Source of the DNA: a virus | DNA length: 41,175 bases | Direction: 5' to 3' (one strand) | IMG/VR virus record: IMGVR_UViG_3300002168_000007 | Span: 1 to 41,175 of that record | Part shown: piece by piece, positions 1,183-21,745 of the stretch | How positions within the stretch are numbered: the first letter of the stretch is position 1 | How the letters are laid out: the number at the start of each line of letters is the position of its first letter | The notes under the pieces: model-generated | Databases searched by the model: none | Told to the model about the DNA's origin: nothing | The model's input: the letters and a program-made list of their open reading frames with translations, nothing else | Made by a program: the position numbers and the translations under genes

Positions 1183-1209
1183 GACCTCTTTCCTTTACTT
1201 TATGATTCT

Positions 1210-1238
1210 ATTATATACCCAATTGTATACAAACACAA
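1210..1238 (-). promoter_or_regulatory. Candidate sigma-A promoter inside the early region (TTGTGT-17-TATAAT)
   Basis: On the minus strand, TATAAT is at 1215..1210 and TTGTGT at 1238..1233, with a 17-nt spacer. Lies downstream of the 1272..1311 terminator and upstream of gene 712..1182. Confidence 0.4.
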
Positions 1239-1256
1239 TATACAAACTATACAAAA
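1226..1256 (-). repeat. Three direct copies of TTTGTATA overlapping or upstream of the -35 region
   Basis: Plus-strand TATACAAA at 1226-1233, 1239-1246 and 1249-1256. Confidence 0.7.
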
Positions 1257-1271
1257 AATTCACTTTTCTTT

Positions 1272-1311
1272 TGTATAAATAAACAAGAGTAGTAAATAAA
1301 TACTACCCTTG
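1272..1311 (-). terminator. Intrinsic terminator after gene 1320..1511
   Basis: Minus strand: CAAGgGTAGTA-tttatt-TACTACtCTTG followed by TTTATTTATAC. Confidence 0.6.
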
Positions 1312-1319
1312 TATGTCAA

Positions 1320-1511
1320 TTATTCATGGAATTCAATATAGTTATTTATTACAATTTGTTCATAAGATTCATTACTTATTAATATTTCATGCTCAATAGC
1401 CCTTATATCGTCTATACAAGTTATACCATCTACTACTTCTATATTCGCATTAGCAATACCGCTTCTGCCATCTTTTAAAAAGTAATTATAAAATATAAAA
1501 TATGTTTTCAT
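1320..1511 (-). CDS. Hypothetical protein (63 aa)
   Basis: ORF track. SD GGGGGGA lies 5 nt upstream. Confidence 0.55.
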   Translation of the reverse strand: MKTYFIFYNYFLKDGRSGIANANIEVVDGITCIDDIRAIEHEILISNESYEQIVINNYIEFHE

Positions 1512-1652
1512 TATATCCCCCCTATAACATCTATTTTAAATATTTTTCTTTAATTTTTTTAATTATCAAATCTCTTTGGCCATTACTCCCATTATCTATT
1601 CTAAAATTATGATACTCCTCACTGAAACAAACACTTTCAATCATATTCTATA

Positions 1653-2183
1653 TTATAACATCTTAAAACCAATTATCTCTTTTACAATTTTATCTCTTGT
1701 ATTATAAGCTGTTTTTCTACTTACATGTATCTTATCAGCGATTTTCTCTGGTTTCATCTTTTGATTATACATTAGATTAATGAAGTATTTAATATCCTCA
1801 TTAAACATGTTAATTACTCTCTCCATCTTGTTAGTCTTGAGTTCCAGGTTCCTTAGCTTATACTCTTCTTTATATAATTGTGTTAAATAATGCTTTTGTT
1901 CTCTTTGTAATGCTGTTATTTGACTTTCTACAGCCTTTTCCACCGCACTATTGCCGTTACTTGATGTTTGTACTCTCTCGTCAAAACCGACTGCTTGTAT
2001 ATCTACTGTGAAGTTTATATCACAATTAGCTATTTTATTATCTATTTCATCAATTACTTTGGTTAGATCATCTATATTCTTTTTAGTTGCTTCCTTCTTT
2101 TTCAAATCTTCATAATATTGATATAATTGTTTTTCTGTCTTTCTAAAAGTGTATTTATTATCTTTCTGTTCAACACACATCAT
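1653..2183 (-). CDS. Putative transcription regulator with sigma-70 region-4-like C-terminal HTH. Candidate late-gene activator or antiterminator.
   Basis: C-terminal MKPEKIADKIHVSRKTAYNTRDKIVKEI resembles a sigma r4 / RinA-ArpU-type HTH. It sits near the end of the early operon, where late regulators usually lie. Confidence 0.5.
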   Translation of the reverse strand: MMCVEQKDNKYTFRKTEKQLYQYYEDLKKKEATKKNIDDLTKVIDEIDNKIANCDINFTVDIQAVGFDERVQTSSNGNSAVEKAVESQITALQREQKHYLTQLYKEEYKLRNLELKTNKMERVINMFNEDIKYFINLMYNQKMKPEKIADKIHVSRKTAYNTRDKIVKEIIGFKML

Positions 2184-2190
2184 ACTACTT

Positions 2191-2221
2191 CCCCCTATTC
2201 GTCTTTTATTTGAATTGCGAA
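2191..2221 (-). repeat. Stop-to-SD intercistronic element, copy 6
   Basis: Minus strand: TTCGCAAT-TCAAAT-AAAAGA-CGAATAGGGGG. Begins 1 nt after the stop of 2223..2465 and ends at the SD of 1653..2183. Confidence 0.7.
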
Positions 2222-2222
2222 T

Positions 2223-2465
2223 TTACTTATGAATTATAATCATTAAAAAATCATTAATTGTCTCGATTCTATCTACTGTATAATCTCCATAGTCTAAAAA
2301 CATTGTGTCACCTTCTCTATTATCAACATCAATTGGTCTATATTCTGATAATGAATTATCTTTATCATTCAATCCCCATATTTCATATTTAAAATATCCT
2401 TTTCCTTCGACATATAAAGTAACATTATCTACTCTTAACACTTTTCTTAAATCATTTAATTTCAT
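2223..2465 (-). CDS. Hypothetical protein (80 aa)
   Basis: ORF track. SD GAAGGAG is provided by element copy 1. Confidence 0.6.
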   Translation of the reverse strand: MKLNDLRKVLRVDNVTLYVEGKGYFKYEIWGLNDKDNSLSEYRPIDVDNREGDTMFLDYGDYTVDRIETINDFLMIIIHK

Positions 2466-2472
2466 AAAATCT

Positions 2473-2500
2473 CTCCTTCACATTTTAATCATATTGTGAA
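2473..2500 (-). repeat. Stop-to-SD intercistronic element, copy 1
   Basis: Minus strand: TTCACAAT-ATGATTAAAATG-TGAAGGAG. Confidence 0.75.
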
Positions 2501-2503
2501 TTA

Positions 2504-2656
2504 TTACTTTCTTTTAAATCCATATTTATTAATTAACATATATTTTATACCTAGCAACTCTCTGTTAGCTTTTCTTTTAGCTTTTAAGAAGTTAATATCA
2601 TAAATTTTCATATTAATTTTAGCTAACCTTGTCACCATTTTTTGATGTTTATTCAT
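2504..2656 (-). CDS. Small basic protein (50 aa, MNKHQKMVTRLAKINMK...), not in ORF track
   Basis: Hand translation. GGAG lies 6 nt upstream. Bounded by element copies 2 and 1. Confidence 0.45.
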   Translation of the reverse strand: MNKHQKMVTRLAKINMKIYDINFLKAKRKANRELLGIKYMLINKYGFKRK

Positions 2657-2662
2657 AAAAAA

Positions 2663-2696
2663 CTCCATATCCTTTTAATCATATTTGTATTGTGAA
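2663..2696 (-). repeat. Stop-to-SD intercistronic element, copy 2
   Basis: Minus strand: TTCACAAT-ACAAAT-ATGATTAAAAGG-ATATGGAG. Confidence 0.7.
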
Positions 2697-2698
2697 AC

Positions 2699-2872
2699 TT
2701 AATTTTGTTTTGTAATAATAAAAGAATTATTTACAAATTCTAAATCTTGTTCAACCTCTGAAAGCATTTCTCCACCATCTTCTACAATTTTCCTCGCTTC
2801 CTCTTCACTGTTAGCTTCAACATAATATTTCTCTGTTCCTATAACTTTAACTTCTACCATAAAAACTGCCAT
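2699..2872 (-). CDS. Hypothetical protein (57 aa from the ATG at 2872; the ORF track extends to 2896)
   Basis: The internal ATG is preceded by TAGGAGGT and a 5-nt spacer. The upstream ATG has no SD. Confidence 0.55.
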   Translation of the reverse strand: MAVFMVEVKVIGTEKYYVEANSEEEARKIVEDGGEMLSEVEQDLEFVNNSFIITKQN

Positions 2873-2892
2873 AACCAACCTCCTATTACTTT

Positions 2893-3132
2893 TCATCTTT
2901 TAATTATTTTCTCTACTTCTTGAATTACGTATCTGATTTCTTTACACTTATTTTCGCTATTAAGTTCCGCACATCTTTTCTCTGCCATTTCATAATCATC
3001 TGTAAACCCTTTATTCTCGCCATTTCCACACCAAATTTGCATGGGATAATCCTTAATACTGCAATCTAATCTAAGAACTTCTTTTGAATAACATATATTA
3101 AATTCATTATTTATCTTTCCTTTACTTTTCAA
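2893..3132 (-). CDS. Hypothetical Cys-containing protein (79 aa, TTG start as in ORF track)
   Basis: ORF track. No clear SD, so the start is uncertain. Confidence 0.45.
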   Translation of the reverse strand: MKSKGKINNEFNICYSKEVLRLDCSIKDYPMQIWCGNGENKGFTDDYEMAEKRCAELNSENKCKEIRYVIQEVEKIIKR

Positions 3133-3226
3133 TTACGTGGAGTTCATAAAATTTAACACTAAATTCTCCACTGCTTGGACTTCTTTTTAAATTAAATTCC
3201 ACATTTCCATACTTTTCCTTTATGCA

Positions 3227-3313
3227 TTACTTTTTCACTTCAATATCTTCCATTTCTTTTTCGTGAAAAAGTAAGAATCCTATACATTTTTCATCTCCAC
3301 ATTTACACTTCAT
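3227..3313 (-). CDS. Tiny Cys-rich ORF (28 aa, MKCKCGDEKCIGF...). The frame stays open for 34 more codons after its TAA.
   Basis: ATGA overlap with the upstream ORF 3310..3483. See the finding on the interrupted ORF. Confidence 0.35.
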   Translation of the reverse strand: MKCKCGDEKCIGFLLFHEKEMEDIEVKK

Positions 3314-3483
3314 TTCTCACACCCTCCAATTAATTCGCATTTAGATTCTAATTCTTTTTCAATTAAGGTTATTTTCTCTAAATGATTATCAAGGTTACAC
3401 TCTATTTCCCATTTATATTGCTCTAATAAATCTTTTAAGACATTGACTTCTAAATCTTTAATATATTCTTTGAAGTTTCTCAT
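3310..3483 (-). CDS. Hypothetical protein (57 aa, MRNFKEYIKDLEVNVL...), not in ORF track
   Basis: Hand translation. SD GAAGGAG is supplied by element copy 3. Confidence 0.5.
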   Translation of the reverse strand: MRNFKEYIKDLEVNVLKDLLEQYKWEIECNLDNHLEKITLIEKELESKCELIGGCEK

Positions 3484-3493
3484 TGCTACTTAT

Positions 3494-3521
3494 CTCCTTC
3501 ACATTTTATTTGTATTGCGAA
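3494..3521 (-). repeat. Stop-to-SD intercistronic element, copy 3
   Basis: Minus strand: TTCGCAAT-ACAAAT-AAAATG-TGAAGGAG. Starts immediately after the TAG of 3522..4076. Confidence 0.75.
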
Positions 3522-4076
3522 CTATAATTTTCTTCCACATATAGGGCAAAAATTTATTTTTTTATAATCAAAATTAAAAGCATCATCACCTACTAATTGA
3601 TTATTACCATCAATGTATACACCATCACACCCATCGGATAGTAATAAGTCTCTATCATCAATATCAACGCAACAATATCTGCAAACAGAATTTTCTTTAA
3701 TTGTATTAGGTATCTCAACTATTGTATAAATATATTTATCTGTTGATACTTTTTTTAAGAATTCTTCTCTATATTTCATAGGGATTGAAGGGTAAAATAA
3801 TTCATTATCCCCTTTTTCTTTCATGAGTAATTTCATATGTTCATAAGCTTTAGCATAACAAGCTTTAGTTCTTATAACGTCATAACACAACTTGCCAACT
3901 ATAACACTATAATACATTCTTAATTCATATCTTGTATTGTCTGTAACAATATATTCATTTGAATATCTGTATAACTTGCCATTGCTGGTTGTTATTTCGT
4001 ATTTACATGTTTCACAATCTACCTTAACATCTATAACATCAATATATTCATGACTTAATATATCATATATTTTCAT
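3522..4076 (-). CDS. Cys-rich protein with putative zinc-ribbon motifs (184 aa)
   Basis: CETC near the N-terminus, CRYCC internally, CPICGRKL at the C-terminus. SD comes from element copy 4. Confidence 0.7.
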   Translation of the reverse strand: MKIYDILSHEYIDVIDVKVDCETCKYEITTSNGKLYRYSNEYIVTDNTRYELRMYYSVIVGKLCYDVIRTKACYAKAYEHMKLLMKEKGDNELFYPSIPMKYREEFLKKVSTDKYIYTIVEIPNTIKENSVCRYCCVDIDDRDLLLSDGCDGVYIDGNNQLVGDDAFNFDYKKINFCPICGRKL

Positions 4077-4083
4077 TGAACCT

Positions 4084-4111
4084 CTCCTTCATCTTTTAAT
4101 CATAATCCGAA
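4084..4111 (-). repeat. Stop-to-SD intercistronic element, copy 4
   Basis: Minus strand: TTCGGATT-ATGATTAAAAGA-TGAAGGAG. Starts immediately after the TAG of 4112..4648. Confidence 0.75.
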
Positions 4112-4648
4112 CTAAAATAACTTCCCATGCATCTTTTCTCTTGTCTTATTCTTGTCCATCTTCTTTTTAATTTCAGTTTCTATATCTATTTCTAATCCTC
4201 CTACAAGATCAGAAAGTCTAATATATACATCTGCTAATTCTTCTTTAAAATTATCTGCATCACCTTTTCTTAAGCCTTCTACTGATTCTGATATTTCTCC
4301 TATAGTTAGTATTAAGAATTGATTTATATATGCTGTTTTTATATCTTCTACATAATCTGCAAACCATAATTCATCAGATATTTTATAATAAGCATCCCAA
4401 AATCCCTTACGTACTGCATTTTCATGAGCCTTTTCTACTAACTCTTTTATAGTTAATCCGTTGTTTACTTCTAGCATTATTGCACTTCTATTATTTCTAA
4501 GATGCTTTAACAATTCATCTTTATCTATAAAATCTTCTTTGTAAGTTAAAATTGCTCCTTCATCAGCATTTTTGAGATTATTTATTAATATCTCCTTTTG
4601 TTTATCACTCAAACTTTCAATAAATTCTAATATTTTTCTATCTATCAT
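4112..4648 (-). CDS. MazG-like nucleoside triphosphate pyrophosphohydrolase with an N-terminal extension
   Basis: The C-terminal half (GEISESVEGLRKGD...FKEELADVYIRLSDL) matches the EexxE/ExxD helices of the MazG/dimeric-dUTPase fold. Confidence 0.65.
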   Translation of the reverse strand: MIDRKILEFIESLSDKQKEILINNLKNADEGAILTYKEDFIDKDELLKHLRNNRSAIMLEVNNGLTIKELVEKAHENAVRKGFWDAYYKISDELWFADYVEDIKTAYINQFLILTIGEISESVEGLRKGDADNFKEELADVYIRLSDLVGGLEIDIETEIKKKMDKNKTREKMHGKLF

Positions 4649-5079
4649 TTATTTTTCACCTTTCTATTATTACTTCTTATTTTCTTTAACTCATAGAAAT
4701 CTATAAAACCATACTTATCACCATGCTTTAGATTTCTTGCAACTATAGACAGCTTTAAATCTCTATATCTCCAGTGAAATAACTTAATCCTCATTTCTCC
4801 TTGTTGTGTAGTCATTCCCTTTACATCTACATATTCCACACTATCATCATTATGATATATAGTGAAATCAACTGTATATGTTATAGGTCTATACTTCTTA
4901 CCTTCCTTCTCAAAACCATCTACAAGAACAAACTTCTCTTGTAATTCAAAGTTTTTAATTTCTCCTTTTGCTCTTCTTATCTTTAGTGCTTCATAGTATT
5001 TCATTTCATCTTTAGAATCAAAAGTTATTCCATCACATTCAGCTTTTTTACTGTTGTATTTTGACATATTCTCACTCAT
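4645..5079 (-). CDS. DUF1064-type protein (putative PD-(D/E)xK-like nuclease or resolvase)
   Basis: KYNSKKAECDGITFDSKDEMKYYEAL...YTVDFTIY...VEYVDVKG is the typical DUF1064 pattern. ATGA overlap with the MazG-like gene. Confidence 0.6.
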   Translation of the reverse strand: MSENMSKYNSKKAECDGITFDSKDEMKYYEALKIRRAKGEIKNFELQEKFVLVDGFEKEGKKYRPITYTVDFTIYHNDDSVEYVDVKGMTTQQGEMRIKLFHWRYRDLKLSIVARNLKHGDKYGFIDFYELKKIRSNNRKVKNK

Positions 5080-5140
5080 TTCTTATATGATATTGATAGC
5101 CAAGTGAGAAAATTAGCTTGTAACCATATCCTCACTTAGG

Positions 5141-5168
5141 CTTATTCATCTTTTAATCATAATCCGAA
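5141..5168 (-). repeat. Stop-to-SD intercistronic element, copy 5 (SD part degenerated)
   Basis: Minus strand: TTCGGATT-ATGATTAAAAGA-TGAATAAG. Identical to copy 4 except in the SD. Starts immediately after the TGA at 5169-5171, not after the SSB amber codon. Confidence 0.75.
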
Positions 5169-5219
5169 TCAGAATGGAACCTCCTCCGAATCGTCAACTG
5201 GATTATTCCACCCATCATC
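5169..5219 (-). other. In-frame post-amber extension encoding the canonical SSB acidic C-terminal tail (DDGWNNPVDDSEEVPF, then TGA)
   Basis: Hand translation downstream of the TAG at 5220-5222: GAT GAT GGG TGG AAT AAT CCA GTT GAC GAT TCG GAG GAG GTT CCA TTC TGA. Confidence 0.7.
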
Positions 5220-5564
5220 CTAATTATTGTTGTTAGTTGTTGTATTATTCTTAGCCCACTCTACACCGTCGAACATATCAGCTACTACTTCTGTAACATA
5301 TCTTTTAGTACCGTCTTTAGCTTCATAATCTCTTATAGTTAACTTACCGTTAACCCACACTTTTTGTCCTTTTAAAACATTGTTAGCGAAGAACTCTGCT
5401 TGTTTACCCCATACCACAATATTTACAAAATAAGTCTTTTTGTTTTCTCTGTATCCGTCGTTAACAGCTATACTAGTTGTTGCAACTGGTGTACCTTTCC
5501 CTGCTGTCATTCTTAATTCTATTTCCTTACATACGTTCCCTGAAATTGTTATTCTATTTGCCAT
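5220..5564 (-). CDS. ssb: Single-stranded DNA-binding protein, OB-fold core (114 aa to the amber codon; 130 residues if the TAG is read through)
   Basis: Typical SSB OB-fold (VWGKQAEF...KGQKVWVNGKLTIRDYEAKDGTKRYVTEVVAD) and an Asn/Thr linker. Confidence 0.9.
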   Translation of the reverse strand: MANRITISGNVCKEIELRMTAGKGTPVATTSIAVNDGYRENKKTYFVNIVVWGKQAEFFANNVLKGQKVWVNGKLTIRDYEAKDGTKRYVTEVVADMFDGVEWAKNNTTTNNNN

Positions 5565-5581
5565 TTATATCTCACCTTTCT

Positions 5582-5752
5582 TTATTTTGTATTTATTATC
5601 GTTGCTACTTGTTCTAATACAATACATGCAATTGCTGTTATAAACATTATTCTTAAACTTATAATACTACTTACAAATAATGATATTATTGCAGCAAATG
5701 TACATACTATAATTTCTAAAACACTTAATCTTTTAATTAATTTGTTATTCAT
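5582..5752 (-). CDS. Small membrane protein (56 aa from the ATG at 5752; the ORF track extends to 5779)
   Basis: Two hydrophobic segments. AGAGGGTG lies 6 nt upstream of the internal ATG. Confidence 0.5.
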   Translation of the reverse strand: MNNKLIKRLSVLEIIVCTFAAIISLFVSSIISLRIMFITAIACIVLEQVATIINTK

Positions 5753-6356
5753 TAATATCACCCTCTTTCTTTTCTTCATATTTAATTAAATTATTTAATA
5801 TTTCTTCTGCTTTTTTGTGGCAATTATCTAAAACACACTCAATTATCATACCTTGTTCAAAACTTAAATTATTTTCTCTATAGAATTTTATTTTATCTTC
5901 ACTATCTATAATTAAATTTTCGACATATCTTCTGTTTAGATATTCCCTAGCTTTCTTTAAGTCCTCAATGCCATTTTTATTTTTGTATCTAACTAAATAC
6001 TTGATGATATTTCCAGTTACAAATCCAATTTCGTACTTGTTACAGAACTCAATTACATCATAGCTTCCTTTATGATAGTACCCAGGTATAATATTTTTTT
6101 CTTTTATGTCTTTAAGATCATCTAGTGTTATTGTTTGTTCTGATATGCTGTTAATTGTATTTACTGTTTTATTGTGTTTACCAATGTAATCTTTTGCTAT
6201 ATGAACATTTTCAACATAATTTTTACTATTTGTACAATCAAGTACTTTTAAAAATGGACATTTTCGTTCAAAACAATTTACAGGACATTTTATATTTAAT
6301 ATATTTCCATCATTCTCAACTACTATTTTGCAAAATTCTAAAATCTTATCTTCCAT
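5745..6356 (-). CDS. DUF3310-family phage protein with an N-terminal Cys-rich region
   Basis: YHKGSYDVIEFCNKYEIGFVTGNIIKYLVRYKNKNGIEDLKKAREYLN matches the DUF3310 signature. Confidence 0.6.
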   Translation of the reverse strand: MEDKILEFCKIVVENDGNILNIKCPVNCFERKCPFLKVLDCTNSKNYVENVHIAKDYIGKHNKTVNTINSISEQTITLDDLKDIKEKNIIPGYYHKGSYDVIEFCNKYEIGFVTGNIIKYLVRYKNKNGIEDLKKAREYLNRRYVENLIIDSEDKIKFYRENNLSFEQGMIIECVLDNCHKKAEEILNNLIKYEEKKEGDINE

Positions 6357-8054: not shown

Positions 8055-8894
8055 CTAAAAATCAATATCTTCAAATTCTGCATTGTATTTAGCAATATTT
8101 TCTTCACTAAATTGTTCATTTATTTCTTGCTTTAGTTTTTTGTATTCTTCCTTTGAAAAATTATTTAACTCTTCTTTTTGACTTCTATTGCCATAAGAGT
8201 TGTAATTATTTTTTTTAGGAAATACAGATAACCAACAATTACATATACTTTCTTCTAACCTCTCTATCTTTTCTGTATCATTTGTTGCTAAGGTATCTAA
8301 CTTCTTCAATAAAGTTTTTAAGGCTCTATCTGTCATTGGTTTCTTTTGTGACTTTCTCATTTTTAAGAAGTCTTGTAGTGTTTCTACTAATTCAAAGTTA
8401 GAAGTATAAGTGTTAATTATTTCATCTAATGCAGATGCTTTTTTCTTTTTCTCTTTTTTATTACCTATACTATCCTTACCTATACTATCCTTACCTATAC
8501 TATCCTTACCTATGCCGTCCATTGGTTGTCCTTGGGACGTCCCACTATCTTTTTTTCTATCTGCTCTTTCCTTAGATTCTAATAATTCTACATCTGGATT
8601 AACTTGTAATAATATATTTTTATATATTGAATCTACTTTCCTATCTGCTCTTATTTTGTTGTGTTCTTGCCAATCAACTATAAAACTTACTAAATCTTCA
8701 TTAAGTATTGTTATATATCCTTTAGATACTAATACTCTTAAATCATCTTCTGTTGCTCCTGTCATTCTTAAAGTTGTAAATGCTTCTACAACACCATCAT
8801 CATCTGCTCTCATTCCTAGATCATAATATAGAAGGCGAGAAGAAGAAGGCATCTTTAAGAATTTAGCAGATTCTATTATTTTTAATGAAAACAT
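8055..8894 (-). CDS. Replication initiator / replisome organiser with a winged-helix-like N-terminus
   Basis: N-terminal AKFLKMPSSSRLLYYDLGMRADDDGVV... resembles RepA_N/replisome-organiser domains. Sits directly upstream of the DnaC-like loader and contains tandem iterons. Confidence 0.65.
   Translation of the reverse strand: MFSLKIIESAKFLKMPSSSRLLYYDLGMRADDDGVVEAFTTLRMTGATEDDLRVLVSKGYITILNEDLVSFIVDWQEHNKIRADRKVDSIYKNILLQVNPDVELLESKERADRKKDSGTSQGQPMDGIGKDSIGKDSIGKDSIGNKKEKKKKASALDEIINTYTSNFELVETLQDFLKMRKSQKKPMTDRALKTLLKKLDTLATNDTEKIERLEESICNCWLSVFPKKNNYNSYGNRSQKEELNNFSKEEYKKLKQEINEQFSEENIAKYNAEFEDIDF
8461..8520. repeat. Tandem 15-bp iterons (3 perfect, 1 degenerate) inside the initiator gene. 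Candidate ori.
   Basis: ttacctatactatcc x3 (8461, 8476, 8491), then ttacctatgccgtcc (8506). Encodes GKDSIGKDSIGKDSIG. Confidence 0.8.
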
Positions 8895-8915: not shown

Positions 8916-9041
8916 TCACTCCTTTAATAGTTTCTCAACTTCTAAAGCCTTGTCGTAAGGGATAAGGGTATACCCCATATTCCCTACAACAACTTTTATA
9001 AATATTCTTCCGTTTATTTTTAGCGGTATATGTTTAATCAT
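8916..9041 (-). CDS. Small ORF (41 aa, MIKHIPLKINGRIFIKVVVGN...), not in ORF track
   Basis: ATGA overlap with the ERF stop. Fills the gap to the initiator gene. Confidence 0.4.
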   Translation of the reverse strand: MIKHIPLKINGRIFIKVVVGNMGYTLIPYDKALEVEKLLKE

Positions 9042-9631
9042 TTATTACCACTCTCTTTTACTTGGCAATTCATACATAAAACCTTTTTGAACTTGTTATA
9101 TGAAAATTTTGCTATCTTTTCAGTTACTTCTTTACCGCAGTTTTTGCAGCTATAAGTTTTGTTGCCGGTATTATTATTTACTGCTTTATTTTGTGTTCTG
9201 TTAGAAGTATCTCTAGCATCAGGATCATCACCGTCTGTTGGTGCTTGAAAGAACTTCAATATAAAATATCTCTCACTGTAAGTTAAGGCACTACCAAAAC
9301 TTTTTGATATATCATCTTGTGCACCGTAGTATTTCCAATTAACCTTTATGACTTCTTCTGGATTTTCAGCATTAACCCATGTATAAATCATGTCACCATT
9401 TACAATAAAATCTGTTTTTTCTTCGTCTTTACTATTTTTGTAATTAAAAGTTTCAGTATGGTCTACACCCACACATTCTGGAATTAAAAGAACTCCTAAT
9501 TCATCCATCTTAGTCCTAATCTTTCTTATAGCTTGGCTACCACTTACATATTGGTATCTGTACCCTTTAGTATCCTTACAAAAATCTATAACATCTTTTC
9601 TTATTTCAATTAATTTTTGTTGTAAATTCAT
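9038..9631 (-). CDS. ERF-family single-strand annealing recombinase with a C-terminal zinc ribbon
   Basis: SKSFGSALTYSERYFILKFF matches the ERF core motif. C-terminal CKNCGKEV...CMNC. SD TAGGAGGA. Confidence 0.75.
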   Translation of the reverse strand: MNLQQKLIEIRKDVIDFCKDTKGYRYQYVSGSQAIRKIRTKMDELGVLLIPECVGVDHTETFNYKNSKDEEKTDFIVNGDMIYTWVNAENPEEVIKVNWKYYGAQDDISKSFGSALTYSERYFILKFFQAPTDGDDPDARDTSNRTQNKAVNNNTGNKTYSCKNCGKEVTEKIAKFSYNKFKKVLCMNCQVKESGNK

Positions 9632-9640
9632 AATATCCTC

Positions 9641-10123
9641 CTATCTTATCCTTAGACTTTCGCTTTGCTTTAAAATTGCACCTTGTACGTCTTTACCGTT
9701 TTTAAGGTCTTGTAATATAGCTTTCTTATCTAAAGTCTCTGTAAGTACCTTGTAGTCGCTAGAAATGATATTTGCATTAGTTATTTCTGCACTAGGTGAA
9801 TTTTTTACAATATTGAATGAGAAAGTACCAGATTTAAATTTAGTTTTGCCTGTCATTTTCATATTATCTTCAAGATATTGCTTTAATCTTTTATTACTGT
9901 TTTCTAAAGCCTTTCTACGTTCTGAAAGTCTCTTTTCTTCTTCCTTAAATGCTTTTATATCAGCTTCATTGTTTTTTAATATCTTAGCTATATTTTCAGC
10001 CTTGTCCTCAATTTCTTCTCCTAAAGAATTTAATACTGCTACAAGTTCCTCGTTATCTTCTCCGTTTTCTAAAAGATATTCAATGTTTTTATATCCTGTA
10101 GATAATTCGTAAAGCTTTGCCAT
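9641..10123 (-). CDS. Siphovirus Gp157-like protein (commonly paired with phage recombinases)
   Basis: N-terminal MAKLYELSTGYKNIEYLLENGEDNEE and a coiled-coil body typical of the Gp157 family. Immediately upstream of ERF. Confidence 0.6.
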   Translation of the reverse strand: MAKLYELSTGYKNIEYLLENGEDNEELVAVLNSLGEEIEDKAENIAKILKNNEADIKAFKEEEKRLSERRKALENSNKRLKQYLEDNMKMTGKTKFKSGTFSFNIVKNSPSAEITNANIISSDYKVLTETLDKKAILQDLKNGKDVQGAILKQSESLRIR

Positions 10124-10509
10124 TATTTATCACCTTCTTTATAGAATTTATAAATATTCCAATATTCGTATTTATCAGTTGTAAAGCTTGTTTTGCCATC
10201 CTCCCAACAATACACGACACCACTTGAATAATTCTTAAAATGTCTCTTATGCCATTCATCTTTAATATCTTTTTTTACTAATATTTTTGTATCAATAGGT
10301 ATTTCATTCCATTTTATATCCTTTTCATATTCTTCAAATTCTAAAGTTACTATTCCATAACTGTTGTAAAATGAAGTTATATCTGTGTCTAGGTCGTTTT
10401 TTAAATAAAAACAATCTCCTTCATTTACGACTTCCCATATATTATTGTGTGAAATTTCTCTATAGACTTTGCCTATATTTTCTTCTTTTAAAATTTCCCA
10501 AAGTTTCAT
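10123..10509 (-). CDS. Hypothetical protein, paralogue B of 10736..11125 (128 aa)
   Basis: Shares MK-WEI-K-EN, IWEV, LEFEE, P-DTKILV, W--RHF--Y, WN--K-YKEG with paralogue A. Confidence 0.7.
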   Translation of the reverse strand: MKLWEILKEENIGKVYREISHNNIWEVVNEGDCFYLKNDLDTDITSFYNSYGIVTLEFEEYEKDIKWNEIPIDTKILVKKDIKDEWHKRHFKNYSSGVVYCWEDGKTSFTTDKYEYWNIYKFYKEGDK

Positions 10510-10736
10510 TCTTCAACCTCCAATACTCTTGATAATTCGTAGTGATAATCTTTAACTGTATTTTGTGTAGCTGTTGTAGTACCTTTTAAGTCTGTAATAT
10601 CGTTTCTAATATCGCTTATATTCTCTCTCATAATGTTTAAATATCCCTCTATGACCTTAATATTAAGCTCTAACTGGTCTATATTGCTTGTTAGAGTGTC
10701 TGCAATATCTTTGTATTTTCTTGCTTGCCAAGCCAT
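10506..10736 (-). CDS. Small coiled-coil protein (76 aa) sandwiched between the paralogues
   Basis: ORF track. Start and stop overlaps on both sides (TAATG / ATGA). Confidence 0.6.
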   Translation of the reverse strand: MAWQARKYKDIADTLTSNIDQLELNIKVIEGYLNIMRENISDIRNDITDLKGTTTATQNTVKDYHYELSRVLEVEE

Positions 10737-11125
10737 TATTCTTCACCTTCTTTGTAGAGTTTTGCATAGTTCCAAGATACACACCCATCTTTTTGGGAAT
10801 AACTAGTAGTACCTTTATTCCAAGCTAAAACCTTACCCTTCATATATTTAGCAAAGTGTCTACGTTCCCATATGTCGTCTTCACTATCTCTAACTAATAT
10901 CTTTGTATCAACTGGAACCTCAGACCAATCTACAACTTCTTCAAAGTCAAGTTCTGCTATTTCAGATAGAGTATATAATTTCCAAATATAACCCCCATTG
11001 TCAGTTACTAAATCACATGTTGTTTTATATGGAGTTCTTTCTACAAATACTTCCCATATATACCCATTGCTATCCTTAAATTTACTTTTTGAATTTTCTT
11101 GTTTACATATCTCCCAAGCTTTCAT
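10736..11125 (-). CDS. Hypothetical protein, paralogue A (129 aa)
   Basis: ORF track. SD TAGGAGGT lies 6 nt upstream. Confidence 0.7.
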   Translation of the reverse strand: MKAWEICKQENSKSKFKDSNGYIWEVFVERTPYKTTCDLVTDNGGYIWKLYTLSEIAELDFEEVVDWSEVPVDTKILVRDSEDDIWERRHFAKYMKGKVLAWNKGTTSYSQKDGCVSWNYAKLYKEGEE

Positions 11126-14197: not shown

Positions 14198-14230
14198 TTC
14201 TTGCACCTCCTTTCCGTTTGGTATGTCTAT

Positions 14231-14259
14231 ATTATGTCATGATTTGAGACAATGTTCAA
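14231..14259 (-). promoter_or_regulatory. Early (PR-like) promoter TTGAAC-17-CATAAT with an operator filling the spacer
   Basis: Minus strand: -35 at 14259..14254, -10 at 14236..14231. The spacer contains the 15-bp repeat 14237..14251. Confidence 0.55.
14237..14251. promoter_or_regulatory. Operator copy 1 (tcatgatttgagaca), perfect inverted repeat of 14402..14416
   Basis: The reverse complement equals tgtctcaaatcatga. Confidence 0.75.
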
Positions 14260-14393
14260 GTTCGATTATAAGCTATTTTAAACCATATTTAGTCTTATTA
14301 CATGACATAGTTAAATTAACTCTTCTACATTATTAATTGCTTTCTATAAATTAGAATTTCTTTAAATTTCATTCAAAATAAACATATGTTCTC

Positions 14394-14422
14394 TTTTAAA
14401 ATGTCTCAAATCATGATAATAT
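14394..14422 (+). promoter_or_regulatory. Repressor/integrase promoter candidate TTTTAA-17-TAATAT with the same operator in its spacer
   Basis: -10 TAATAT at 14417-14422. The operator at 14402-14416 lies in the spacer. Weak -35. Confidence 0.45.
14402..14416. promoter_or_regulatory. Operator copy 2 (tgtctcaaatcatga)
   Basis: Perfect 15-bp inverted repeat of 14237..14251. Extra TGTCATG half-sites at 14301-14307 (reverse orientation) and 14429-14436. Confidence 0.75.
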
Positions 14423-14477
14423 TTTAACTGTCATGAAAAGTAATGAGTTTTAAATGTAGTAAAGGTGGTAAAAATAA

Positions 14478-14837
14478 ATGAACTTAAAAGGTGAAAGAAT
14501 AAAGGAATTAAGAAAAGAAAGAGGTCTGTCGCAAGCTAAACTTGCAAAAGAATGTGGAATTAGTAGATCAGTAATCGCTATGGTTGAAAGTGGTAAACAA
14601 AATGGCGGTCGTGATTTTAATAAAGCTATTGCAAATTATTTTGGTGTTAGTATAGATTATTTAGAAGGTATGACAGATGATAGAAATAATAGTAAAGAAA
14701 GCTTAGTAAATGAATTTGTTCAATTTTTAATAGATAATGGTATTATTGAAGACGAAAACAATGTTGATGAAGAAACAGAACAAATAATTTTAAGTTTAAT
14801 AAGAAGAGAAGTGAAAAAGATTAAGGGGGATAAGTAA
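14478..14837 (+). CDS. CI-like XRE-family repressor (119 aa, no S24 peptidase domain)
   Basis: HTH LSQAKLAKECGISRSVIAMVESGKQ. Divergent from the Cro-like gene. TAATG junction with the integrase gene. Confidence 0.8.
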   Translation: MNLKGERIKELRKERGLSQAKLAKECGISRSVIAMVESGKQNGGRDFNKAIANYFGVSIDYLEGMTDDRNNSKESLVNEFVQFLIDNGIIEDENNVDEETEQIILSLIRREVKKIKGDK

Positions 14838-19319: not shown

Positions 19320-19348
19320 TAAAATTTAATTTTCTTCGTCTTTTCTAT

Positions 19349-21745
19349 CTATTGTGAATTAATTAATCTAAAATATCCAGTTATATCACATACACCTATA
19401 TAATCTCCACTAGTTACTACTGCAAAATCACCATTAACAATTCCAATTTTACTACCTAGAGCCACATCAGTTAATGAAGTATCTGAGATTTTAACATATC
19501 CATTAGTTTTTACTAGTATTTCTTCATTTGCAGTTGTACTAGTACTCATAGCCACACCATAAAATTTATAAGTATCTCTAGTTCCATGTGCTGTTACATA
19601 AAAACCATTACGTGCAACTGGTTTACCTTTAGAAATTGCACCATCTGCCATCATTACAGGGGTTTCATCAGAAAAGTTATACATATATTCATTACCATCT
19701 GTGGCAGTTATATCATACAATCCTTTAGTATTATTACTTCCTGTTATATCAAAGTCTATTCCCACACCACTTCCAGGAACTTCTTCCATCATCATTATTC
19801 CATTAAATTGACAGCCCATCATTTTAACTTTATTTTTAACTGTACTAGCCATGCCACCAAATTTAATAGAGCAGTTACCTTTACTTATAAATTTACAATT
19901 ATTAAATTCAATATCCGCAGGAATAGTAAAATTAACATTACTATGCAATCCAAATGCTAACTGTTTATTAGATATAAATTTACAATCTTTAAATCTACAT
20001 ATAGCACCATTATGAATACCGCTACCATATGCAACGTTGTAATAAGTGTCCTCTGCTATAAAATCACAATTTACAATGTTTCTTTTGCAATAAGTATCGG
20101 TATATGCAAAATCATCATGACAAGCATATCTTGTTTTTACACCTTTAATTGTTAAGTTTTCTAATCCTGCTGTACCTGCTAAATTTATTGTAGATATATT
20201 AGCATTTGCAGTATCACATGTATATTGTAATATTGTATTTTCTTTTTTACCTAATGCTTTTAAAGTAACATAATTAGGTACGAATAAACCATAGAAATCA
20301 CTAGCTGTTTTTTCATCATCTGTATAATAAGTATTAATATTATATGTTCCCTCGGGAATATACACCTCATATTGATTATCTTCACTTGGGTTTAAAGTCA
20401 TGTATTGAAATACACCTTTTAGGTTTATACTGCCATCCATAATTATTTTTGTTAGTTTAGGTATATTTTTAGATTTTTCTTGTAATGTTTGTATATCAGC
20501 ACTTGTTATATAATCGCACTCTTTAAACATATGTTGATATACTTCAAAATCTGTTTGTGTATCGCCTTCTTCTAATTGAAGATTAATAGTATAATCTGTA
20601 AAAGTTCCGCTACTCGGATATACTAACCAAAAATATTGTAAATCTGTTGCATCTGTTGGTGTAAAAGTGCTATATCTAGAAGGAGTGGCAATTGTTAATG
20701 AACAATTCAAACTCGCAACTTGTACCATAGGACTTTTATTAATAAGTCCACCACCTAAACCACTTGGAGCAGTTCCGTTTAAATAATTACAAGATACAGT
20801 ATAAGTTTTACTAGCATCTACATAATTTAATTCATCTGTTATGACAACAGCAGAAGACGCACCAGTTTTATCTATAGTACCATTAATAACAATTTTATCA
20901 GAATAAACATTTATTGTTGTACCAGCATAAGATATTGTTTTAGGAGTTAGCTTAAGTTTATTTTTACTAATTTCAACAAAATCTAAATGATTATAATTTA
21001 CACTCTTATCGCCCAATGCTTCACCGCTAGAAATTGCTCTTACTGCCCCTCCTACATTTGTATATGTAGTTCCATTTACAGTTCTTGCATCGATTAATTC
21101 TGCATCACCAGTTGTTGAACCACTAGGTAAACTTGTTAAAGCATCTATTCTTGCAGATTGTGTTTCTATGTCTACTGTATTTTTAGATACATTTATATTT
21201 GTAACATTTAAATCTGTTTTATTCGCCTTTTCTTCCAATTCTGAATTAATCGAACTTAACTCACTATCTACATAAGCCTTTTTAGCATAATTATTTAAAC
21301 TACCAGTTTGAATTGTTTGAACTAGTGTAGTGTTTAATGTTTGTAATTCTGTTATAGCATCTGTAATTACATCTTCGCTAACACTTCCTGGTTTCATACT
21401 AGTAGGTATTACTTTATATTCTCTTCTTATAGTACCTTTTCTCACAGTTCCATCACTAATAATAATGTTAAATGTTCCAGAGCCGCTATATTGTGCCACT
21501 GCTTCTGGTGTAATGATTTCAATATAATTTGTACCATATATTATATCGCCATCTTGTAAAAATGGGTGCCCATTAGGTTTCAGCCACTCAATACTAACCG
21601 TATCAGTATCTAACAAAGTGTAAGGAGTACCATTTTCAAGTAATTCTATCTTGAACGGCACTCCTTTATCCCCTTGATTGAGTGTAAATGCAGTTGTGTA
21701 ATCTTGTAGTACTAAATTACCTTTCAATGTTTGTTGACTTATCAA
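19349..21745 (-). CDS. Receptor-binding / baseplate upper protein: BppU-like N-terminus, coiled coil, beta-helix-like C-terminal region (TTG start)
   Basis: N-terminal TAFTLNQGDKGVPFKIELLENGTPYTLLDTDTVSIEWLKPNG resembles BppU_N. The C-terminal part has repeated NC-F/DC-F motifs typical of parallel beta-helices. Confidence 0.7.
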   Translation of the reverse strand: MISQQTLKGNLVLQDYTTAFTLNQGDKGVPFKIELLENGTPYTLLDTDTVSIEWLKPNGHPFLQDGDIIYGTNYIEIITPEAVAQYSGSGTFNIIISDGTVRKGTIRREYKVIPTSMKPGSVSEDVITDAITELQTLNTTLVQTIQTGSLNNYAKKAYVDSELSSINSELEEKANKTDLNVTNINVSKNTVDIETQSARIDALTSLPSGSTTGDAELIDARTVNGTTYTNVGGAVRAISSGEALGDKSVNYNHLDFVEISKNKLKLTPKTISYAGTTINVYSDKIVINGTIDKTGASSAVVITDELNYVDASKTYTVSCNYLNGTAPSGLGGGLINKSPMVQVASLNCSLTIATPSRYSTFTPTDATDLQYFWLVYPSSGTFTDYTINLQLEEGDTQTDFEVYQHMFKECDYITSADIQTLQEKSKNIPKLTKIIMDGSINLKGVFQYMTLNPSEDNQYEVYIPEGTYNINTYYTDDEKTASDFYGLFVPNYVTLKALGKKENTILQYTCDTANANISTINLAGTAGLENLTIKGVKTRYACHDDFAYTDTYCKRNIVNCDFIAEDTYYNVAYGSGIHNGAICRFKDCKFISNKQLAFGLHSNVNFTIPADIEFNNCKFISKGNCSIKFGGMASTVKNKVKMMGCQFNGIMMMEEVPGSGVGIDFDITGSNNTKGLYDITATDGNEYMYNFSDETPVMMADGAISKGKPVARNGFYVTAHGTRDTYKFYGVAMSTSTTANEEILVKTNGYVKISDTSLTDVALGSKIGIVNGDFAVVTSGDYIGVCDITGYFRLINSQ

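Follow-up and report, generated by a model that had tools for sequence, protein, structure and literature searches.

The nearest described counterparts of the element considered here are the promoter-early stem-loops (PeSLs) of T4-type phages, which combine a strong sigma-70-like promoter with a terminator stem-loop and whose cassettes are transcriptionally autonomous (Arbiol et al., 2010, PMC2839356; Comeau et al., 2014, PMC4122927); crossovers at PeSLs have been mapped between the Shine-Dalgarno sequence (SD) and the boxes upstream of it (PMC2839356, PMC4122927). Beside them stands the general model of conserved boundary, or 'linker', sequences from the modular theory of phage evolution, in which homologous recombination is directed to short conserved stretches between genes; such sequences have been reported for some lambdoid phages and summarised in PMC3233612 (its references 20 and 21), for which evidence is sparse and debated, many mosaic joints having no conserved sequence (PMC3233612). 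Clear examples of conserved boundary sequences are few, and it is a long-standing question whether mosaic joints fall at gene boundaries through targeted recombination at short conserved sequences or through selection that filters random illegitimate events. Here we describe a family of 24-30 nt intergenic elements in a viral DNA of 41,175 nt (IMG/VR record IMGVR_UViG_3300002168_000007, positions 1 to 41,175, referred to below as the window), in which copies separate small accessory genes located between ssb and the gene for an ArpU/RinA-like transcriptional regulator. Literature searches turned up T4-type PeSLs and the boundary-sequence model only, and no such element in Firmicute phages, in agreement with an earlier note made from the letters of this DNA, whose author knew of no named element of the kind in these phages.

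The element has a core of 24 nt that consists of box A (TTCRSAWT, 8 nt), one 6-nt middle box, which may be box B (WCAAAT) or box C (ATGATT), and box D (AAAA-NNN-GAA, 10 nt), with GGAG directly 3' of it in most copies. The window holds five full 24-nt copies, one of 30 nt and one that is degenerate, all on the minus strand, and in each of them the core starts 0-3 nt past the upstream stop codon. Taken in the direction of transcription, with scores from the model R1 described below, the copy at 5145-5168 (TTCGGATTATGATTAAAAGATGAA, 22.5 bits; copy 6) lies directly past the TGA of the full SSB frame and is followed not by an SD but by a leader of ~65 nt with a hairpin, before a DUF1064 gene. The copy at 4088-4111 (22.6 bits), identical to it at 24/24 positions, comes after the TAG of a MazG-like gene and before the SD GGAG at 4084-4087; this direct repeat thus brackets the DUF1064 and MazG-like genes, a translationally coupled pair. 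Then follow the copy at 3498-3521 (TTCGCAATACAAATAAAATGTGAA, 23.8 bits), between the TAG of a 184-aa gene and an SD at 3494-3497, and the degenerate copy at 2892-2911 (ATAATTAAAAGATGAA, 12.4 bits over model positions 5-24), with the SD AGGAGG of a 65-aa gene next to it and, inside its box D, a TGA that is the stop of the open reading frame (ORF) 2893-3132. In the 30-nt copy at 2667-2696, boxes B and C are present together (TTCACAAT ACAAAT ATGATT AAAAGGATAT; partial match 2671-2685; SD GGAG 2663-2666), the copy at 2477-2500 (TTCACAATATGATTAAAATGTGAA, 25.1 bits; SD 2473-2476) follows TAATAA, and the last, element 1 at 2198-2221 (TTCGCAATTCAAATAAAAGACGAA, 18.6 bits), runs into TAGGGGG, the SD of the ArpU/RinA-like gene, and marks the start of a homology block shared with the related contig L001. 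The earlier note had listed six of these copies, every one of which is confirmed in place and on the minus strand, as is its description of them as beginning 0-3 nt past a stop codon and, in five of the six, ending in an SD, the exception being 5145-5168. It had overlooked the degenerate copy, which makes seven, and was right that two copies are identical, although the pair is 4084-4111 and 5141-5168 (listed fifth and sixth), over 24 nt, and not 'copies 4 and 5' over 23 nt. On the minus strand of 2897-3310, a stretch flanked by intact small genes, there are only short, broken-up ORFs (one of ~30 codons that opens with ATG, then stops, then one with a TTG start), which look like decaying cassettes.

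The repeat is real and goes beyond chance. The string ATGATTAAAA occurs four times, always on the minus strand and always intergenic, as compared with 0.93 +/- 0.84 times in shuffled sequence, where none of 100 shuffles reaches four. R1, a sequence-only model of the 24-nt core made from 25 distinct variants with the SD left out, finds five full matches of 18.6-25.1 bits and two partial ones of ~12.5 bits in the window, all on the minus strand of 2198-5168, and its best score elsewhere in the 41 kb, on either strand, is 7.2 bits. Since R1 was built partly from the window copies themselves, the informative part of this result is the absence of other matches. Across the 25 variants T14-A18 and G22-A23 are invariant. 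The R1 scan revealed no similarity of the element to attP or to the repressor region.

The earlier note had further proposed that the two ends of the element pair in a short stem with compensatory changes, and this did not hold. When columns 1-6 are set against columns 19-24 in the 25 variants, 66% of the cells can pair, as against 68.1% in column shuffles, no pair is changed on both sides, and the covariation score is reached by 384 of 500 shuffles; the informative fourth pair is G-U in 12 variants, A-U in six, G-C in three and unpaired in four. The inverted repeat TTCACA/TGTGAA is perfect in few variants only, and among orthologous copies ahead of the regulator gene the 5' arm reads TTCG, TTCA, TTTA, TACG or ATCA while the 3' arm is a constant CGAA. 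Minimum free energies of five stop-to-start gaps range from -0.8 to -3.6 kcal/mol (z -0.7 to +1.4 relative to shuffles). Pair counts, folding and the orthologous copies before the regulator gene therefore rule out an RNA stem TTCRCA/TGTGAA and, with pairing, covariation and folding all at shuffle level, the elements look unstructured; no Rfam family matches them. There are 37 promoter-like sites, which is no enrichment over shuffled sequence (35.3 +/- 5.7), and none recurs at the elements, in which box C (TATGAT) alone resembles a -10 and has no conserved -35; terminator-like sites are absent from 1313-6000. A promoter or terminator function was accordingly rejected for want of a recurrent site. 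Two other candidates were set aside as well: a mini-ORF in box C (ATG ATT AAA AGA TGA) with the start-stop ATGTGA, of which neither the frame nor the presence is conserved across variants, and MazF-type ACA/UACAU sites, which are missing from the ATGATT-type copies. In short, the linker is devoid of promoter and terminator and of any conserved structure in RNA or DNA.

The comparison with PeSLs follows from these results. As with PeSLs, short conserved intergenic motifs are found in a hyperplastic region of small non-essential ORFs, which here is the ssb-to-regulator segment, and the end points of indels and replacements that distinguish relatives fall in the motif, though in our case junctions without the element are affected about as often. 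PeSLs have likewise been seen as 'linker sequences' of modular evolution, and for both, deletions, duplications and circles would be expected to arise when direct copies recombine. However, the present element lacks the sigma-70-like early promoter and the terminator stem-loop that define a PeSL, and is therefore not one; its cassettes would need to be read from the operon transcript. It is also just 24-30 nt long and has no sequence similarity to PeSLs, it resides in a temperate low-GC siphovirus-like phage rather than in a T4-type myovirus, and the recombinase that accompanies it is of the ERF type, not the T4 UvsX system.

How widely the element occurs was assessed in relatives of the phage, by which we mean contigs encoding homologues of the regulator protein together with one IMG/VR contig, L001. 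It is present in every relative fetched, with 31 R1 matches at 10 related loci, all on the coding strand, and the motif is thus not peculiar to the window. All but one of the 31 matches lie between ssb and the regulator gene, the exception being upstream of a 304-aa gene in L001. Gaps that bear an element measure 40-48 nt, other intercistronic gaps 13-28 nt, the latter of a compact TAGGAGG...ATG type. The genes between ssb and the regulator gene are different in each relative and comprise DUF1064, RecU-like, MazG-like and dUTPase_2 genes along with many small ORFs without a family match. The regulator gene itself is preceded by an element in the window, in L001, in L004 and in L008-L015, and by a plain TAATCTAATAAGGGGGATAAAACTATG instead in L003 and L005-L007; any of the boxes (A, B/C, D) is absent from some copies.

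Copies are found, too, where no other similarity remains. A protein-based scan of JGI metagenomes found nothing, and a pattern scan of them gave 21 single matches, among which those in L029, L030, L032 and L046 look genuine; most single matches in such scans of large collections we take to be chance. The species genomes of GTDB contain no relative by protein search and gave only isolated, scattered matches by DNA pattern, one of them in a contig of 51% GC, which we also take to be chance. Several short low-GC contigs have copies between small ORFs (three to four in L030, at least three in L061, all with AAAATGCGAA, and two to three in L029), and L032 and L046 have one clear copy each. At E <= 1e-5, tblastx connects none of L029, L030, L032 and L061 with the window or with its relatives, and the element is the sole shared feature; in L061 a MazG-like gene and a terminase fragment downstream of the copies place them in the same genomic niche. 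The family thus spans several uncultured low-GC phage lineages, and within genomes as well as between them the element is the only sequence common to otherwise unrelated units.

The units that the element bounds are present, absent or rearranged among the relatives. Where the window has five genes (4055-2225), L001 has one 54-aa gene in their place, and homology resumes at 2225, 4 nt before element 1 begins. L003 (3641-3879) and L004 (4767-5005) share a 66-aa gene at 100% identity over 239 nt, with neighbours that differ on both sides, and this identity begins in TGATTAAAA and ends in CAAATAAAA, both ends lying inside elements. L008 contains a tandem duplication of 1914 bp (641-2554 and 2544-4457) with no mismatch and six genes, the novel joint of which falls within TATGATTAAAA and connects the linker that follows ssb with the one that follows a MazG-like gene; the joint is one that a duplication, an excised circle or an assembly path could each have given, with a recombinant element in every case. 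Units therefore occur in different neighbourhoods with identity that starts and ends inside linkers. The direct repeat of 24 nt that brackets the DUF1064 and MazG-like pair of the window is a further sign of exchange at the element. The linkers themselves are chimeras of reassorted boxes: all four combinations are found among the 25 variants both for box B/C against the box D triplet and for the box D triplet against the 3' flank, which upholds the block shuffling between copies that the earlier note had suspected. Box A tends to accompany the upstream gene and the 3' flank the downstream gene, and this pattern, together with the reassortment, is what would be expected if crossovers occurred at more than one place within the linker. 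In L003/L004 and in L008, every mapped joint ends at TAAAA.

These observations support one of the roles offered in the earlier note, that of module-boundary linkers promoting cassette exchange, and to that reading we would give a probability of roughly 60%: the element would be a portable, unstructured stop-to-SD linker that provides microhomology for cassette shuffling, a PeSL analogue without promoter and terminator. It would fill the space between stop codon and SD that separates units of accessory genes in the variable segment from ssb to the late regulator, and the 10-24 nt of identity between linkers would serve as microhomology for homologous or homeologous recombination with co-infecting phages or prophages, or between copies within one genome. 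The most likely catalyst would be the phage's own ERF-family annealing protein together with SSB. ERF-type and other Rad52-like phage recombinases, an Erf included, recombine diverged substrates far better than RecA does and have been proposed as drivers of mosaicism (PMC3945230, PMC2327257). A crossover between two direct copies would delete or duplicate the unit between them, and might release a circle able to re-enter at any other copy. Because a crossover inside the linker would fall past the stop codon, in a stretch whose RNA is unstructured and A-rich, both neighbours should be left intact, and the ATGATT form of the linker, with stops in all three frames, may further protect them. Such stops are found in 13 of the 25 variants, complete ATGATT-type linkers included, as against 3.0 +/- 1.6 in shuffles, the variants not being independent of one another, and three ORFs end at a stop inside an element (2893-3132 in the window, 4753-5070 in L001 and a 59-aa gene of L008). 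Finally, as the linker ends in an extended SD, GAAGGAG, which we could align to the 3' end typical of Firmicute 16S rRNA in a 7-bp SD helix, an incoming gene could be translated from the existing operon transcript.

The individual cases in L003/L004 and L008 are clean examples, but several points weigh against this reading. Of all homology-block ends, 49/159 (31%) fall within elements, which make up ~6% of the segment, but this raw enrichment is lost in a junction-level control: a homology breakpoint is present at 24/30 element-bearing and at 16/24 element-free junctions (Fisher p = 0.35). Exchange is thus not confined to elements, which are one substrate for it and not the sole one, and the raw enrichment may largely reflect the general rule that mosaic boundaries coincide with gene boundaries. 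The perfect 1.9-kb repeat of L008 comes from a short-read metagenome scaffold, and could stem from the route that an assembly took across a mixed population and not from a single molecule. The invariance of T14-A18 and G22-A23 in otherwise unrelated contigs could fit a sequence-specific binding factor equally well, and it is the presence of the gene, taken by itself, that suggests a part for the ERF protein. The element also resembles the boundary sequences of lambdoid phages: a short sequence between genes is common to adjacent modules that are otherwise unrelated, mosaic joints lie at gene boundaries, and many joints in the segment do without the element. It differs in that the boundary sequence is a general concept, whereas here we have a defined 24-nt family with ~30 copies across relatives that can be written down as a model.

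Two alternatives we regard as unlikely. The first is that the element acts on RNA, as a translational operator or enhancer or as a processing site through which an RNA-binding protein or endoribonuclease of phage or host co-regulates the accessory genes, a role that the earlier note had put forward in both forms. A site of this type would explain why the element is found strictly on the sense strand and is phase-locked to the SD, why T14-A18 and G22-A23 do not vary and why the element is kept in contigs without other similarity, and an unstructured RNA would suit a protein that binds single strands. The structural argument for the operator and for the processing site fails, however, as there is neither conserved structure nor covariation nor an Rfam match, and nothing that we computed supports either one. 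It is also difficult to reconcile a binding site with the facts that boxes A, B/C and D are each missing from some copies, that the element precedes some orthologous regulator genes and not others, and that ~65 nt separate copy 6 and its orthologues from any SD. Among the 30 window proteins scanned, no RNA-binding regulator or RegA/RegB-like protein was recognised.

The second, which we likewise think improbable, has no role for the element at all: a workable leader would have been copied along with genes by serial duplication and illegitimate recombination and would persist by descent and hitch-hiking, neither targeting exchange nor regulating anything. That element-free junctions hold breakpoints about as often as others fits this view, AT-rich spacers adjoining an SD have a limited sequence space, and copies do decay, as seen at 2892-2911, which is degenerate and has been absorbed into an ORF. 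Yet the genes that flank the copies are unrelated, so that gene duplication cannot account for them, and an unconstrained AT-rich spacer of 24 nt should not stay 80-100% identical in contigs that are otherwise dissimilar. Nor would it be expected that the blocks of cassette identity end inside the element on both sides, or that all four box combinations would be found.

A third possibility, which strikes us as doubtful, goes further in the direction of exchange, in that the elements would be the dedicated sites of a phage-borne, integron-like cassette system whose units are excised as circles, re-inserted at any linker and actively reshuffled. The recombination module might then consist of the ERF protein and possibly of the DUF1064/RecU-like resolvase, encoded between the two identical copies, and the invariant TAAAA...GAA core, along with joints that end at TAAAA, might represent a preferred crossover point. 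Integron attC sites are imperfect palindromes of 57-141 nt which fold as single-stranded hairpins and are recombined at a fixed point by the tyrosine recombinase IntI, with which attI and Pc are associated. The likeness to them is one of layout: a conserved element follows each promoter-less cassette ORF, a single upstream promoter serves the array, the cassettes consist of small genes unrelated to one another, and the excision of circles is conceivable. In contrast to attC, the present element has no conserved pairing or hairpin, the reassortment of its boxes implies crossovers at several positions, and no tyrosine recombinase is found among the window proteins scanned (a subset of the ORFs of the window), in which the only integrase is a large serine recombinase. 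If this reading were true, we would be looking at a promoter-less cassette array that is actively reshuffled rather than passively recombined.

Mycobacteriophage stoperators, the sites bound by the L5 and Bxb1 repressors, are scattered genome-wide and match the operator at the early promoter. A stoperator-like DNA operator, at which a repressor or other DNA-binding protein on the repeated sites would block transcription through the accessory segment, is very improbable here, for although the elements too are short asymmetric repeats in short intergenic gaps with one orientation relative to transcription, in a phage with a CI-like helix-turn-helix (HTH) protein and a serine integrase, they are confined to one segment of ~3 kb and do not extend genome-wide, no copy is present in the repressor and early-promoter region at 14207-14477 (a nearby plus-strand match at 14484-14495 is weak, at 6.8 bits and E 0.79), locking to the stop codon and SD at the level of single nucleotides would be needless for a DNA operator, and few variants have a perfect TTCACA/TGTGAA inverted repeat.

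If the element is indeed a linker for cassette shuffling, the promoter and terminator of a PeSL would seem dispensable for such a function as long as the cassettes sit inside an operon. The family is compact, can be written as a model and is present in several copies per genome, cassette joints can be placed at nucleotide resolution, and an ERF recombinase is encoded nearby; these properties make the question of targeting testable in a temperate phage of Gram-positive type. The motif could also be used to delimit, in metagenomic phage contigs, the accessory-gene cassettes, which are a likely home of anti-defence or host-takeover genes.

The phage in which the element was found is 29.5% G+C over the 41.2 kb of the window and has nearly all of its genes on the minus strand, the plus strand carrying genes for a CI-like HTH protein and a large serine recombinase; the phage is temperate. 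The minus strand reads as one long lytic operon that begins with Cro-like, anti-repressor, AbrB-like, Gp157 and ERF-family recombinase genes and continues with DnaD-like, DnaC-like, DUF3310 and SSB genes, a row of small genes and the phrog_36 ArpU/RinA-like regulator gene. The ERF-family single-strand annealing recombinase gene (9038-9631, minus; PF04404, 45.1 bits against a cutoff of 25) lies in the same operon as the cassettes, and it, the Gp157 gene and the SSB gene are all upstream of the element segment, of which the SSB gene (5169-5564, minus) forms the upstream edge and the regulator gene (1653-2183, minus) the downstream edge. The only terminator-like site within 1200-6000 is a hairpin at 1283-1312 (minus), past the regulator gene, which is conserved in L001 (9104-9135), L003 (6180-6215) and L004 (5765-5800); 3' of it, downstream of the regulator gene, is a conserved promoter-like AT-rich block, TTTATACAAAAGAAAAGTGAATTTTTTGTATAGTTTGTATATTG...TATAAT. 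Together these probably mark the boundary between early and late genes.

Close cultured relatives of the phage were sought by megablast against 50,697 phage records, with no match. Its top portal match is to Clostridium perfringens phages, at 36% identity, and the regulator protein has just 15 homologues among 5.8 billion proteins, all of them metagenomic. An 8.5-kb stretch of the window is identical in an assembly of the public run SRR3184675.

The gene just upstream of copy 6 shows an anomaly of its own. In the SSB frame (5169-5222, minus) there is an in-frame TAG at 5220-5222, where L001 has TAT (Tyr), and the conserved acidic C-terminal tail of SSB, DDGWNNPVDDSEEVPF, is encoded 3' of it, ending at the TGA that abuts copy 6. 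The stop codon assumed by the earlier note upstream of this copy is thus present, in that the TGA at 5169-5171 ends the full-length SSB frame, while the frame itself is interrupted by the TAG. The same TAG is found in other fetched assemblies of the phage (L065, L066 and L068), and as TAG is a normal stop for other genes here, the SSB tail seems to be truncated by a true amber codon, in preference to recoding or an error of sequencing.

What keeps copy 6 from abutting an SD is a conserved hairpin (5098-5141, minus; stem AAGTGAGGATAT / ATTTTCTCACTT; -23.3 kcal/mol, z -2.7) that intervenes between it and the start codon of the DUF1064 gene. Counterparts precede DUF1064 or RecU-like genes in L001 (7056-7100), L004 (3833-3876), L005 (4236-4280) and L008 (1177-1215), and 15 pairs persist across six relatives, two showing compensatory changes. 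This hairpin does not belong to the repeat family, nor, for lack of a U-tract behind it, is it an intrinsic terminator. There is a likeness between its 5' arm and GAGTGAGAA, the SD region of the gene downstream, so that alternative pairing might conceivably control translation.

Elsewhere in the operon, the DnaD-like replication gene contains a 15-nt tandem repeat, GGTAAGGATAGTATA, of ~3.3 units (8461-8510, minus), which is iteron-like and may mark a replication origin. Two paralogous early genes, both assigned to phrog_21026 (10123-10509 and 10736-11125, minus), flank a 76-aa gene. In the tail-fibre gene, two sequences at 19335-19358 and 21222-21245 matched a regular expression drawn up post hoc; R1 gives 5.6 bits at 21222-21244 and does not list the other, and as the two resemble each other we do not count them as members of the family. 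They belong to a wider resemblance within the tail-fibre-like ORF of 798 aa, whose 3' end is similar to a segment in its interior (19335-19364 and 21222-21251, minus; GATTAATTCAxAAT...GAAAAGxCGAA), which may be the trace of a C-terminal module swap.

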